Positions 445-5,175 of a stretch of 5,175 nt of DNA are shown piece after piece. This DNA comes from a virus (lineage: Duplodnaviria > Heunggongvirae > Uroviricota > Caudoviricetes), in the IMG/VR virus record IMGVR_UViG_2537562091_000002. One strand, written 5' to 3'. The position numbers were made by a program, and so were the translations under genes. How positions within the stretch are numbered: position 1 is the first letter of the stretch; every line of letters starts with the position of its first letter. Under the pieces are notes generated by a model. It had not been told where the DNA came from. It did no database searches and saw only the letters and a program-made list of their open reading frames with translations.

Positions 445-517
445 CAACACCCGATACTTTTTCCTGGCTTCCAGCAACGGGGTTTCTTCCTCCGTTGCAT
501 ATACAGCTCACCTTTTT

Positions 518-811
518 TCACCCACGATTAACCAACAGCCAGATCAGCAGACACGCCACCACCGGCACAGCAAAATCCATCAGGCTTGCCACATCCCAAA
601 CACGCGGATCAAAACCGCCCCACCACGGCATGTTAATCCGCTTGCCATGCCCGAACATTTCAATCCAGCGATATTCTGCCTGGGTGTGTTCACGCGCAAT
701 GAAGAACGTACAACCAGCTATCGCCCCATAAGCCCAGTTTCCGGTAAAAAGACCAACCAGTGTCTGCGCAGCCACAGCACAAAGCGCATGAAGAAAAGGT
801 GTTATATCCAT
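518..811 (-). CDS. Small predicted membrane protein (97 aa), function unknown; last gene of the post-fibre cassette
   Basis: ORF with ATG at 809-811 preceded by AGGAGGAG immediately after the upstream stop. Hydrophobic stretches FLHALCAVAAQTLVGLF, WAYGAIAGCTFFIA and FAVPVVACLLIWLLV flank a charged loop containing WWGGFDPRVWD. No family recognised by eye. Confidence 0.6.
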   Translation of the reverse strand: MDITPFLHALCAVAAQTLVGLFTGNWAYGAIAGCTFFIAREHTQAEYRWIEMFGHGKRINMPWWGGFDPRVWDVASLMDFAVPVVACLLIWLLVNRG

Positions 812-821
812 TACTCCTCCT

Positions 822-1526
822 TTATCTAATATCGCTTCGGGAAGTTAATAACAACTTTAATTCTGACTCAAGTTCATCAACTCTTTCAGTCAGTTTCTGG
901 ATATGGTGAATCAGTGGAACAACCAGACGTTCGTACATTACACCTTCGGCAACAAGGCCATTGCTGGAAATAGCTTCAGGAGCATCATCTTCGTTAGCTG
1001 GTCGCCAGTGTACAAACTGAGGAGCAATTTCTCCTACTTCCTCGGCAATCAATCCGTAGAATCCCCAGTCACGCCTGTCATTTTCGCATTGCGACCTGTA
1101 CCACACAGGGCGCATCCTGAAAATGAGATCGGCGTGCTCTGAATCTATTGTCTCTACTGAATGTTTATAGCGGATAGACGATGTTGACCGCAGCACAGAC
1201 GAAATTGCAGGGTCAGGATTAAGATAAAGGTTTGCCGCCGCTGTAGTCGTGGCCAAATTCCATAAATAAAACGCTTCACGACCTGTCAGTGGATAAAAAT
1301 CTCCGCCATAACGACCACTTTCCAGATCGTTCACTTCCACTTTGTTTTTCAGCTTATTATCAACTTCAGTTTTTGTGTATCTGGAGCTGATATCCTGCTT
1401 TGCACTGGTCATCTCAGTCTGAAGCGTTGATACTTTTCTGCTAATTGATGAAATATCTTCCTTAGCTTTACTGACATCCCCCTTTAGCTTGGTGATATCT
1501 CCTGGAATTACTGTCGATGTAGCCAT
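822..1526 (-). CDS. Standalone coiled-coil protein (234 aa) with a C-terminal peptidase-S74-type intramolecular chaperone domain (tail-fibre/tailspike auto-chaperone type)
   Basis: ATG at 1524-1526, with GAGG overlapping the upstream stop 9 nt before it. Residues about 10-65 show 3-4 spaced hydrophobics (heptad pattern). Residues about 116-234 (SSIRYKHSVETID...RPVWYR...GLIAEEVGEIAPQFV...YERLVVPLIHHIQKL...ELESELKLL) fit the recalled S74 IMC consensus (SDrrlK...lrPvsYrY...GliAQEv...). Confidence 0.8.
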   Translation of the reverse strand: MATSTVIPGDITKLKGDVSKAKEDISSISRKVSTLQTEMTSAKQDISSRYTKTEVDNKLKNKVEVNDLESGRYGGDFYPLTGREAFYLWNLATTTAAANLYLNPDPAISSVLRSTSSIRYKHSVETIDSEHADLIFRMRPVWYRSQCENDRRDWGFYGLIAEEVGEIAPQFVHWRPANEDDAPEAISSNGLVAEGVMYERLVVPLIHHIQKLTERVDELESELKLLLTSRSDIR

Positions 1527-1535
1527 TTTCCTGCC

Positions 1536-1817
1536 TCACATCCAGCCACGAAGTTGATGCTCAACAACAACCGCGTATTTATCGAATATTGACGATTTTT
1601 TTGCATCATTAATGATGCGCACGTTTACAAAATATCCGTCTTCCTTAACACATACCGGCTCGCCATCTTCAGTAAGTTCTCCGGTTTCTTTGTACACGTT
1701 ACCTATCACGTCAATAAGAATATCATCCTGCATCGACTCGTCATCATAATAGCCAGCACTCTTCATAAAGGCCGAAAAGTCGGCCTTGTCTGTGAATTTG
1801 ATAATTAAATCTCGCAT
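1536..1817 (-). CDS. Small acidic hypothetical protein (93 aa), translationally coupled to the fibre gene
   Basis: ATG at 1815-1817 overlaps the fibre stop (minus strand reads TAATG); GGGAGAG lies upstream. Asp/Glu-rich product (MRDLIIKFTDKADFSAFMKSAGYYDDESMQDD...). No similarity to Tfa recognised. Confidence 0.6.
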   Translation of the reverse strand: MRDLIIKFTDKADFSAFMKSAGYYDDESMQDDILIDVIGNVYKETGELTEDGEPVCVKEDGYFVNVRIINDAKKSSIFDKYAVVVEHQLRGWM

Positions 1818-3784
1818 TATATTATCTCTCCCATTTGCGCATCGGTTAATTCTTTATGCCATATTCTAAAATTCCTGATATAACCAAATAAATGACGTAA
1901 GCCGGCTGTAGTCTGGCCTCCAATCCTTATACCTGTAGCACCACTAACACTCTTCCACGTTGTTGATGCTGGTGTTGATAAAACCCCATTGCAGCCAGCC
2001 TGAAACTTGCCATCGCTTTTTATTCTATATACAGCGATAATCTTTCTTGGGTAATTTCCAGGTGGAAATGATATTGGATTACCAAATTGAACATATGGAG
2101 TTCCTACACTACCTGCTGTATTTCTGAATGCAAAAACAAAAGCGTCGTCTTTTGTTTTAAATCCTGTTATATCATAAATTCTAGGCGCGGAATTTGGTGC
2201 CATAGACCAATTTTTATTCACTTCAACCATGCAGGTTAAAGGTTTGCTGGCCATGTTATTTTTACAAGGCAATGTAACAATATCGCTTGCTCGCGTTGAT
2301 GCAACTGTATCGGAAATGATAAAAGATGATGCGCATGAGCCGCCTTCAAATTGTGGTGTCGTAACATCCAAATATTCCCCGCCCAAATAAGTTCCAGGTG
2401 AAACAGGTGGAGCAATTTGGATCTGAGAGCCAACCATATTATCAATAGCTTCAGATTGATATGTAACCTCGAAATAAATCCATCCATTAGATTCTTTCTC
2501 CGCTCGGGCGGTTATTCTTGCAGCCCCTCCTCCCGTTTTCCTAATGGACATATCTGTTATATTAAGATATGCATCTGCCAGATAAAAATATGCGGACCCG
2601 TCATATCTTTCAAATCTTATACGACATTGTATATTAGCACTATCGCTTTTTACACGACATGATGTTGTAACATACTTTTCAGTTCCAGTAACATCGACAC
2701 CTCTTCCTCCTGAAACCGCAGCGATATTCATTGTCGTATTTGTCCCAATTTTTTCGTCCTTTATTTGAAACCGCCCATAAGTAAAGCCAAACTCATCAAC
2801 ACCACTTTCTGTTATAGTTACACTTGTTGTAGCTCCCCACTTAGATGGCGTAAGTGAATTAAGATGATAGTTGGTTCTTTGTCCTTCAATCAGCAAACCT
2901 TCTCGTTCAAATCGCGGTTCGTCAACTTCAGCAACGGTTAATACTCCTGATTTATTAATGTATGTTGCACCTGATGCGCGTTTGAAGCTAACAACCTTAT
3001 CGGATGGCATTTTAATAACATCATCACCTACAGTTATTTGCTTATAACCAGGCGAAAAGCCAGCAAGCATATCCAGTGAATCGTTAAACGGTATCCACAC
3101 ATCGGGAAGCGGCTGCAAAACTTGTTTATACGGCTCCGCAGCCTGGCTTGCATACTCTCTGGCTGCGTCTTCACTTGCTTTTGCAGCCGTCTGGCTTGCA
3201 GCGGATGCTTTCGCCGAGTTAGCCGCCGCAGTCTCGCTCGCCTTTGCGTTGGTTTCACTGGTTTTTGCAGCTTTTTGACTGTTGGCTGATGCAGTGGCAG
3301 AAGAAGCCGCCGCACTTGCAGAACCAGCTGCGGCACTCTCGCTTTGGGCCGCTGCATCCTGACTGTTTTTCGCCGCAGTTTCGCTGGCTTTGGCATTCGT
3401 TTCGCTGGTCTTCGCTGCCGTCTGGCTGGACTTTGCGTTAGTTTCGCTCGTCTTCGCTGCTTTCTGGCTGTTAGCTGCAGCAGTTGCTGATCCAGCTGCT
3501 GAAGTCGCAGAACCGGCTGCCGCACTCTCGCTTTCGGCTGCTGCAGCCTGACTGCTTTTCGCCGCAGTTTCACTGGTTTTGGCATTCGTTTCGCTTGTTT
3601 TCGCTGCCGCCTGGCTGGACTTTGCGTTGGTTTCGCTCGTCTTTGCTGCTGTCTCGCTATTTTTCGCGTTGTTTTCTGATTTTTTAGCTGCTGTCGCGGA
3701 GTTTGCCGATGCAGTCTGCGAGGCCGCTGCCGCCTGTGCGCTGTTAACCTGAATCGGTTCGTGCTGCCTTTGCGGTTTCCTGAT
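1817..3784 (-). CDS. Side tail fibre protein (Stf family), N-terminally truncated remnant. Open frame 3784-1817 with no canonical start; the only start candidate is TTG at 3116-3118. C-terminal LamG/concanavalin-A-like lectin-type domain.
   Basis: Manual translation of the frame continuous with the 1817..3118 ORF stays open up to TGA at 3785-3787. Residues upstream of 3118 read ...AAKTSETNAKASETAAKNSQDAAAQSESAAAGSA..., typical of lambda Stf-type shaft repeats. The C-terminus ...IGGQTTAGLRHLFGYIRNFRIWHKELTDAQMGEII fits the LamG signature (IGG...G.IDEVRIYNRALSAEEI). Confidence 0.8.
   Translation of the reverse strand: MRKPQRQHEPIQVNSAQAAAASQTASANSATAAKKSENNAKNSETAAKTSETNAKSSQAAAKTSETNAKTSETAAKSSQAAAAESESAAAGSATSAAGSATAAANSQKAAKTSETNAKSSQTAAKTSETNAKASETAAKNSQDAAAQSESAAAGSASAAASSATASANSQKAAKTSETNAKASETAAANSAKASAASQTAAKASEDAAREYASQAAEPYKQVLQPLPDVWIPFNDSLDMLAGFSPGYKQITVGDDVIKMPSDKVVSFKRASGATYINKSGVLTVAEVDEPRFEREGLLIEGQRTNYHLNSLTPSKWGATTSVTITESGVDEFGFTYGRFQIKDEKIGTNTTMNIAAVSGGRGVDVTGTEKYVTTSCRVKSDSANIQCRIRFERYDGSAYFYLADAYLNITDMSIRKTGGGAARITARAEKESNGWIYFEVTYQSEAIDNMVGSQIQIAPPVSPGTYLGGEYLDVTTPQFEGGSCASSFIISDTVASTRASDIVTLPCKNNMASKPLTCMVEVNKNWSMAPNSAPRIYDITGFKTKDDAFVFAFRNTAGSVGTPYVQFGNPISFPPGNYPRKIIAVYRIKSDGKFQAGCNGVLSTPASTTWKSVSGATGIRIGGQTTAGLRHLFGYIRNFRIWHKELTDAQMGEII
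3240..3720. repeat. In-frame tandem direct repeat, period 189 bp (63 codons), about 2.5 copies, encoding the fibre shaft low-complexity repeats
   Basis: Near-identical blocks start at 3321 and 3510 (GAACCAGCTGCGGCACTCTCGCTTTGGGCC... vs GAACCGGCTGCCGCACTCTCGCTTTCGGCT...). The sub-motif CTTTGCGTT.GTTTC.CT.GT recurs near 3242, 3431 and 3621. Confidence 0.85.
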
Positions 3785-3791
3785 TCAGCAT
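3744..3791 (-). pseudogene. 15-codon stub (MLNQETAKAARTDSG*), interpreted as the remnant 5' end of the gene after nu1 (terminase large subunit by position)
   Basis: ATG overlaps the nu1 stop as TAATG and is preceded by AGGAGGAG. The frame stops after 15 codons exactly where the Stf-type repeat sequence begins. Too short to identify by sequence; the call rests on position. Confidence 0.35.
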
Positions 3792-4285
3792 TACTCCTCC
3801 TGCTGTAATTCCTCCTCATCATCCGCACCTGCTTCAGTCACCCGCAGGGCTATCTGATCGCGCAGATCATCAATAATGGACTGAACACGGCTCACAGCGG
3901 CAGGCTGCAGACCGCAGTCACGTTCAAGAATATCCGGTAATGTCTCCAGCACCTGCACGACCGCTTTTGCCCAGATGGCAAACTCCCGTCTGACATCACT
4001 GGCCGGAATGAGTTGTGCCGTTTCCTGTTCGAACTTAAGACGCTCACGTTCAGACTGATACCAGGCTTTGCGCTCATGCGCGTCCATTTCGCCTTCTGCA
4101 ACCGGCGGTGGTAATGCCAGAAATGCCGACACAATATCAACCACCCGATAAAGCTTGAGGTTGCTTTCATGCCCCCCTGCAACGGGTAGATTTTGCAGCC
4201 TTGCCGCAGCAGTCTGGCGATGTACACCTGACAATGCCGCCAGTTGACTGATATTCAGCGTCAGATTTTTTAACTCTCGATCCAT
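3791..4285 (-). CDS. Terminase small subunit, lambda Nu1 / Noh family (164 aa)
   Basis: ATG at 4283-4285 with GGAG 7 nt upstream. N-terminal HTH-like segment LNISQLAALSGVHRQTAAARL parallels lambda Nu1 KKQLADIFGASIRTIQNWQ. Sits about 175 bp downstream of a cosN-like site, as in lambda. Confidence 0.85.
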   Translation of the reverse strand: MDRELKNLTLNISQLAALSGVHRQTAAARLQNLPVAGGHESNLKLYRVVDIVSAFLALPPPVAEGEMDAHERKAWYQSERERLKFEQETAQLIPASDVRREFAIWAKAVVQVLETLPDILERDCGLQPAAVSRVQSIIDDLRDQIALRVTEAGADDEEELQQEE

Positions 4286-4500: not shown

Positions 4501-4718
4501 CGACAGCCTGACAACCGTGACGAGCATCTGTAACAGAGCTTTACATAATGGCATGGGGATAATTCAGAAGGACATCACAGCATGCCCACACAAATTAGTG
4601 TGAGTGTCCTGTTTCTTACTACGCGCAGGACTGACGAGCATGAGGGGAAAATACGAGAAACGAAATGCCTTATCTTCAGAAATGCAGCCGGCATCCGAAC
4701 TGGACGATATTGTAAATT

Positions 4719-4757
4719 TGATCTTACCCAGCAATAGTGGACACGCGGCTAAGTGAG
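4719..4757. repeat. IS3 left terminal inverted repeat (approximate extent)
   Basis: Element terminus begins with TG at 4719; the roughly 39-bp IR length is recalled, not measured. Confidence 0.6.
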
Positions 4758-4783
4758 TAAACTCTCAGTCAGAGGTGACTCAC

Positions 4784-5083
4784 ATGACAAAAACAGTATC
4801 AACCAGTAAAAAACCCCGTAAACAGCATTCGCCTGAATTTCGCAGTGAAGCCCTGAAGCTTGCTGAACGCATCGGTGTTACTGCCGCAGCCCGTGAACTC
4901 AGCCTGTATGAATCACAGCTCTACAACTGGCGCAGTAAACAGCAAAATCAGCAGACGTCTTCTGAACGTGAACTGGAGATGTCTACCGAGATTGCACGTC
5001 TCAAACGCCAGCTGGCAGAACGGGATGAAGAGCTGGCTATCCTCCAAAAGGCCGCGACATACTTCGCGAAGCGCCTGAAATGA
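4784..5083 (+). CDS. insE: IS3 OrfA (InsE). The ORF track starts at GTG 4775; the canonical ATG is at 4784 with AGAGG upstream.
   Basis: Translation MTKTVSTSKKPRKQHSPEFRSEALKLAERIGVTAAARELSLYESQLYNWRSKQQNQ...ATYFAKRLK matches recalled InsE. The CCAAAAG slippery motif lies at about 5043-5049. Confidence 0.9.
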   Translation: MTKTVSTSKKPRKQHSPEFRSEALKLAERIGVTAAARELSLYESQLYNWRSKQQNQQTSSERELEMSTEIARLKRQLAERDEELAILQKAATYFAKRLK

Positions 5084-5175
5084 AGTATGTCTTTATTGAA
5101 AACATCAGGCTGAGTTCAGCATCAAAGCAATGTGCCGCGTGCTCCGGGTGGCCCGCAGCGGCTGGTATACGTGGT
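5080..5175 (+). CDS. insF: IS3 OrfB (InsF), 5' part only, with an apparent 1-nt deletion in an A-run (possibly inactivating, possibly a homopolymer sequencing error)
   Basis: ATG at 5080 encodes MKYVFIE in frame 1. The conserved continuation HQAEFSIKAMCRVLRVARSGWYTW is encoded from 5103 in a different frame. The window has GAAAAC where the recalled sequence has GAAAAAC. Confidence 0.7.
   Translation, partial: MKYVFIENIRLSSASKQCAACSGWPAAAGIRG

Follow-up and report, generated by a model that had tools for sequence, protein, structure and literature searches.

Branched tail fibres, in which a proximal subunit carries a second, separately encoded fibre, have recently been described. In the phage IrisVonRoten (Bas32, Tequintavirus), Humolli et al. 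(2025) modelled Gp22 (bas32_0022) as a proximal fibre bearing the T-shaped distal protein Gp24, with the attachment derived from AlphaFold-Multimer, and predicted that a C-terminal 'galectin-like domain' of Gp22 protrudes from the fibre, possibly as an extra receptor-binding domain (PMC11990801). We compared this and other described fibres with a 5,175-nucleotide stretch of Caudoviricetes DNA (IMG/VR record IMGVR_UViG_2537562091_000002), hereafter the window. All relevant genes of the window lie on the minus strand, and the coordinates below refer to that strand unless stated otherwise. The gene in question is an open frame of 655 codons plus stop (1817-3784), of which 1817-3746 is derived from a tail fibre. 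This fibre is a new, diverged member of the branched-fibre proximal subunits. We think it probable that 1817-3746 represents the 3' two-thirds of a proximal side-tail-fibre gene that belonged to a portable branched-fibre cassette with auxiliary lectin heads, preserved here as a relic.

The window and IrisVonRoten share the same C-terminal module, composed of a conserved N region, a variable middle beta-sandwich (M) and a C-terminal LamG-type domain (C). The module is 62% identical to Gp22 overall and 94-96% identical over N and M, whereas the LamG domains are only about 49% identical. In IrisVonRoten, the next gene encodes 92 amino acids (aa) and is 40% identical to the 93-aa protein (p93) that follows the fibre in the window; it precedes Gp24, which shares its N-terminal peptide and its S74 chaperone with the distal fibre of the window. 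The two systems differ in the tail anchor, which is of T5 type in IrisVonRoten and of lambda Stf type in the intact relatives of the window family, and in the distal fibre, a T-shaped protein of 574 aa with two receptor-binding domains as opposed to 234 aa in the window. Moreover, IrisVonRoten is a functional phage, while the window copy is truncated.

Other known systems share only parts of this organization. The 325-aa Rcc01080 protein of RcGTA, the gene transfer agent of Rhodobacter capsulatus (GhsB; PDB 6tb9, 6tba, 6tsu and 6tui), binds capsule and is homologous over module residues ~43-285; however, it sits as a single subunit on capsid pentons, and both a fibre shaft and a LamG domain downstream of the homologous residues are missing from it. 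The T5-like phages DT57C and DT571/2 are comparable in design logic, with a tail-anchored protein carrying a second fibre protein (LtfA/LtfB) and maturation by a C-terminal intramolecular chaperone (PMC4728585, PMC10713586). In the text consulted, we found neither a lectin or jelly-roll end of LtfA nor an intervening 93-aa gene. Full-length relatives of the window fibre have the PF08400 anchor and the KTSETNA shaft in common with lambda Stf (orf-401/orf-314, with Tfa encoded by orf-194), and they occupy the same position after J and lom. They differ from it, and from tips of the T4 gp37/gp38 type, in the distal half, and the window holds an 18-codon tfa relic instead of an intact Tfa gene.

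The C-terminal jelly roll and the adjoining sandwich

The last part of the polypeptide (aa ~251-433 of the 433-aa C-terminal part, 1820-2368) had been assigned in a sequence-only reading, which placed it at 1817-2420, to the LamG/ConA-like fold. A single-sequence search of the PDB with the 433-aa part returned no match (best E about 1), and the family profile alone succeeded. The last ~155 positions of this profile match an S-layer domain-containing protein (4qvs, E=3.7e-5), and the same C-terminal positions match the HCN domain of botulinum neurotoxin (BoNT) type D (E=0.003) and pentraxins (E=0.005-0.007); the similarity to domain 4 of AbnA is not significant by sequence (E=0.18). The AlphaFold2 model, built from 71 sequences, has a pLDDT score of 92.5 and a predicted template modelling (pTM) score of 0.89. 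It is a two-sheet jelly-roll sandwich that superposes on solved ConA-like members, and Foldseek retrieves with it the same set of folds as the profile search, together with the galectin domain of the porcine adenovirus fibre (2wsu), a viral fibre that likewise ends in lectin domains. AbnA domain 4, BoNT HCN, CBM40, pentraxins and 2wsu have the same fold at 9-16% sequence identity.

The Pfam family Laminin_G_3 (PF13385) is matched at residues 347-428 of the 433-aa part, with profile positions 72-149 of 151 covered, and 43 of 71 diverse relatives match it at E<=0.01 (best 1.9e-11). The sequence of the window itself scores 24.3 bits (655-aa frame) or 25.1 bits (433-aa part), below the gathering score of 27.6 bits. 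Family profile, relatives, structure prediction and Foldseek together confirm that the C-terminal domain is a ConA-like/LamG jelly roll, and the earlier assignment was right in its peptides and coordinates as well as in the fold. As galectin and LamG domains are both ConA-like, this also agrees with the published prediction for the homologous Gp22. No conserved ligand-site residues could be assigned in the domain from sequence, and the invariant residues sit at its ends.

Upstream of the jelly roll lies the M sandwich (aa 100-250, 2369-2821), although the boundary between the two is uncertain within aa 245-285, with the first residue of the jelly roll to be placed within aa 245-278. Within the 655-aa frame, residues 298-499 are covered by the NCBIfam model NF048003 (GTA_spike_fiber) over its full profile length, at 52.2 bits compared to a cut-off of 36 (E=1.1e-13). 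The family profile matches Rcc01080, the RcGTA head spike fibre (PDB 6tb9 and 6tsu), with E=5.2e-40 at module residues ~43-285 (2264-2992). On this profile evidence, the M sandwich and its flanking strands are homologous to the RcGTA head spike fibre, of which there is one subunit per spike and which mediates attachment to capsular polysaccharide (PMC7296036, PMC10218006). The same profile also matches the tail fibre protein gp17 (9occ) as well as the baseplate proteins gp46 of Pseudomonas phage Pa193 and gp45 of E217 (PDB 9b45 and 8env), which come from other virion contexts (baseplate wedge or triplex of myoviruses).

No part of the family is more conserved than the N region (aa 1-99, 2822-3118), which reads QPLPDVWIPFNDSLDM...RASGATYINKSGVL...EPRFE..GLLIEGQRTN. 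Column conservation in the module peaks at residues 41-90, 251-280 and 411-430, and the least conserved columns are 91-250 and 320-400. In distant relatives, residues 3-100 and 252-430 are retained and unrelated sequence stands in for ~100-250. Median pairwise distances follow the same trend, with 0.44 for M and 0.26 for C compared to 0.11 for N, and 0.09 for both p93 and the N terminus of the distal fibre. By these measures, the module is a conserved frame that holds a middle sandwich of variable sequence and a LamG sandwich whose loops vary, and the N region is a candidate for the junction or branch node of the fibre, a better one than the LamG domain.

In a comparison of the window with L003-L084, its LamG variant proved rare: identity of at least 99% is found only with the copies of E. 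coli B type (L001, L002, L005 and L006), and identity to all remaining loci is 45-53%. This divergence, next to N and M regions nearly identical to those of IrisVonRoten, points to a recombination breakpoint near module residue ~255-260.

Downstream genes and the branched-fibre cassette

We analyzed the gene order around the module in 80 related viral loci. A homologue of p93 begins at the stop codon of the fibre gene in all 75 loci with room downstream, and a second fibre gene is then present in 70 out of 74, with its first ~31-40 residues matching the N terminus of the 234-aa protein of the window (MATSTVIP.DI..LK). The window conforms to this arrangement, with the N-M-C fibre, p93 and the distal fibre contiguous at 822-3118, as in 70-75 of the related loci. 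The stop codon of the fibre overlaps the start of p93 (TAATG), and a 9-nucleotide spacer with a Shine-Dalgarno-like sequence separates p93 from the distal fibre gene. The p93 protein (1536-1817) is acidic, with an isoelectric point of 4.45, occupies the usual position of tfa and has no recognisable fold relative.

The distal fibre (234 aa, 822-1526) carries the conserved peptide MATSTVIPGDITKLK... at its N terminus and an S74 chaperone at its C terminus, features in which it resembles Gp24 of IrisVonRoten, and it also contains a coiled coil. The Pfam family Peptidase_S74 (PF13884) matches it at aa 116-172 (1011-1181) with 27.5 bits, above the gathering score of 22. Both Gp24 (574 aa) and the alternative 346-aa distal fibre that other lambdoid prophages encode also end in an S74 chaperone. 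By synteny, the last gene of the cassette in nearly all lambdoid loci is p97, a predicted membrane protein of 97 aa (phrog_1443; 518-811 in the window). It has no Pfam match and is missing from IrisVonRoten; a role as a lysogenic-conversion or exclusion gene would be speculative.

According to Pfam domains and source names, the module occurs on fibres of lambda type (PF08400) and of P2 type (PF12571/PF03406), and in T5-like, T1-like and Dhillonvirus genomes. In four loci (L057, L058, L060 and L044), p93 is of a divergent type (40% identical), and what comes next is either p97 itself or a sequence in which no distal-fibre N terminus can be recognised. They may be unbranched variants or decayed copies.

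Role of the module and alternative explanations

The organization described above can be accommodated as follows in the interpretation that we consider probable. The intact product would consist of a tail-anchoring N terminus and an Ala-rich shaft, followed by a globular module made of the junction region, the M sandwich and the LamG jelly roll. This protein would form the proximal segment of the fibre, and the distal fibre, encoded two genes downstream, may dock to it via the conserved ~30-residue N-terminal peptide, with p93 as a putative assembly factor or adaptor between the two fibres. Most likely, the two variable beta-sandwiches would serve as auxiliary lectin heads with reversible binding to surface polysaccharides, and the distal fibre would add further specificity. 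In the window, the gene has lost its start and anchor by a deletion that fused the remainder to terS/terL', with IS1 and IS3 on the flanks.

A lectin or auxiliary receptor-binding role is the most likely one for the LamG and M domains, judging from three lines of comparison. It is favoured because the closest folds are largely carbohydrate-binding modules, because the neighbouring M domain is homologous to a capsule-binding protein, and because M and C are the variable parts of the cassette, whereas N, p93 and the distal N terminus are conserved.

Several observations weigh against this interpretation. The Laminin_G_3 score of the window is below gathering, and the recognition of O16 by IrisVonRoten was credited to the distal fibre, not to Gp22 (PMC11990801). 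The evidence for sugar binding by either domain is indirect, and the place at which the distal fibre docks, like any structural role of p93, is putative; the structure predictions covered monomers. BoNT HCN, which is among the closest folds, has to our knowledge no established ligand. The comparison of distance matrices, in which C correlates weakly with p93 (r=0.24) and with the distal N terminus (r=0.20) despite adjoining p93 on the DNA, is a crude test that ignores phylogeny and relies mostly on E. coli prophages. Finally, ConA-like folds often serve protein-protein contacts too.

This last property also speaks for the first alternative, according to which p93, the distal fibre or both dock on the LamG domain, which would have a structural role and bind no receptor. 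Such a role would fit the strict synteny of the module with p93 and the distal fibre, as well as the high conservation of residues 251-280 and of the C-terminal motif HxRNxRIWHxxLT. However, this motif corresponds to the core strand and helix common to Laminin_G_3 domains, and the joint is better sought in the conserved N region. In addition, relatives with a p93 84-96% identical and a distal N terminus 85-91% identical to those of the window share only 45-53% identity with it in the C domain, and p93 and the distal N terminus are the parts with which the C matrix correlates least. We rank docking below lectin binding because of these weak correlations, and consider it unlikely.

The second alternative is the one proposed in the sequence-only reading, namely that the tail fibre ends in the LamG domain, which would replace a gp37/Tfa-type tip as the terminal receptor-binding module and thereby explain the absence of a tfa gene. 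Part of this stands. A lectin fold does form the end of the polypeptide, and the expected difference from lambda is real, as the fibre region is not related to Stf in its distal half (orf-314; best BLASTP E=0.16). Similarity to lambda Stf is restricted to the Ala/Ser/Thr-rich KTSETNA repeats of the shaft in orf-401. We also found in the window no gp37-like distal region of lambda type accompanied by a Tfa gene, and no intact Caudo_TAP gene. It is the fibre, as opposed to the polypeptide, that does not end there, since almost all loci continue with p93 and another fibre gene, whose product begins with the conserved peptide, and the homologous Gp22 was published as a proximal fibre (PMC11990801).

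The explanation for the missing tfa does not hold either. A P2-like locus (L085, 1-3999; GCA_024165985.1, JAKWSV010000018.1) encodes, in order, the N-M-C module, p93, a 303-aa distal fibre and a 175-aa Tfa of the Caudo_TAP family. Its distal fibre has the shared N-terminal peptide, matches Gp34_trimer with 104 bits and falls just below the cut-off for gp37_trimer (20.4 compared to 21.7 bits). The lectin module and a Tfa-dependent tip can therefore coexist. Since S74 distal fibres occur without tfa, and the gp34/gp37-type distal fibre of this locus occurs with it, it is the type of distal fibre that determines whether Tfa is required. No Tfa is needed in the window because its distal fibre is self-chaperoned by S74, and not because of the LamG domain; the same holds for lambdoid distal fibres, whose S74 chaperones already account for the missing gene. 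The P2-like locus also shows that the cassette moves between the tails of siphoviruses and myoviruses and that distal tips of both kinds can be fitted to it.

Furthermore, a relic of tfa persists in the window at 445-498, as annotated in E. coli B REL606. It comprises 18 codons cut by IS1 and encodes the Tfa C terminus (ATEEETPLLEARKKYRVL). The corresponding relic of REL606 is 36 aa long, lies beside pinQ and is 50% identical to aa 142-174 of the Caudo_TAP Tfa of the P2-like locus. The relic resembles a scar left by an earlier stf-tfa arrangement, and suggests that the cassette replaced the older stf-tfa end through recombination inside tfa. Taken together, these data make a terminal tip quite unlikely. 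An enzymatic role of the LamG domain, as a member of the glucanase or lyase branch of the ConA-like fold (GH16-like or polysaccharide lyase) that degrades a surface glycan, is hardly to be expected.

Returning to a proximal fibre with auxiliary lectin heads, a more detailed version can be proposed, although we hold it only tentatively. The N-M-C module might be a self-folding, possibly monomeric arm with two lectins, one per chain of the trimeric shaft, located at the branch node. The node would hold the distal fibre by the 30-residue peptide, and p93 would be a new joint or assembly factor that replaces Tfa. Such a device could be portable among lambda-, T1-, T5- and P2-like virions and accept any distal tip.

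Truncation of the fibre gene and decay of the prophage

Three features of the locus had been overlooked in the sequence-only reading: the domain resembling the RcGTA head fibre that precedes LamG, the p93 and distal fibre genes that regularly follow the fibre gene, and the loss of the start and anchor of the latter. In the fibre frame, no ATG, GTG or TTG is present between the upstream stop (3785-3787) and a TTG at 3118. The tail-anchor domain PF08400 is absent from the frame, which opens inside the repeats of the shaft. By comparison, an intact relative (L007, 4918-7302) encodes 794 aa with a PF08400 anchor (222 bits) and shares the Ala-rich shaft and the C-terminal module with the window. 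E. coli B REL606 is 99.97% identical to the window across 445-3746, and homology breaks beyond 3746, where REL606 continues with the upstream part of the fibre, lom and a remnant of J. Given the lack of a start codon and of an anchor, the break in homology and the intact relative, the fibre copy of the window is best described from its sequence as a 5'-truncated pseudogene.

At the break, the shaft repeats are interrupted mid-shaft and abut the first ~15 codons of terL, which follow an intact DUF1441 terS-like gene (3791-4285; 3747-4285 including the terL codons; Pfam E=2.7e-41; phrog_141). The 3746/3747 boundary is a deletion junction that fused a remnant of the terminase genes to the fibre. 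Such a deletion explains why the head and tail genes are all missing from the window. The terS/terL'-fibre fusion presumably resembles the nohA-stfQ arrangement of the Qin prophage of E. coli K-12. The window begins with the end of an IS1 element (1-444, the element terminus, with insA at 114-389) and closes with the end of an IS3 element on the plus strand (4708-5175, with an insE-like open reading frame at 4775-5083). The window thus represents what decay has left of a Qin-like cryptic prophage, flanked by IS1 and IS3.

The Ala/Ser/Thr-rich shaft (3119-3746), which is similar to lambda orf-401, contains a 189-bp tandem repeat at 3224-3658 (2.3 copies, 83% matches) with a nested periodicity of 21 and 42 bp that encodes KTSETNAK-type sequence. 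The number of repeats varies among relatives, and hence the length of the shaft is variable. This low-complexity repeat is open in several frames on both strands, and we rejected as genes the open reading frames at 3034-3828 (minus strand, wrong frame) and at 3390-3551 and 3579-3752 (plus strand). In the RefSeq annotation of REL606, the repeat carries a wrong-frame 'phage tail protein' and two plus-strand 'hypothetical proteins' (L001, 8590-8952, 8946-9107 and 9135-9386), which look like artefacts of the low-complexity repeat and the missing start codon.

As a decayed remnant of a Qin-like prophage, the window itself has little biological weight. The fold assignment, however, provides a sound annotation for a fibre module that is very common in E. 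coli prophages and phages and that goes under inconsistent names in databases ('phage head spike fiber domain-containing protein', 'phage tail protein' or 'hypothetical'). The module is now shown to sit in a four-gene cassette. For the engineering of host range, this means that the proximal fibre bears two variable beta-sandwiches besides the distal tip, that the requirement for a chaperone, S74 or Tfa, is dictated by the distal fibre, and that the cassette is exchanged among siphoviruses and myoviruses.

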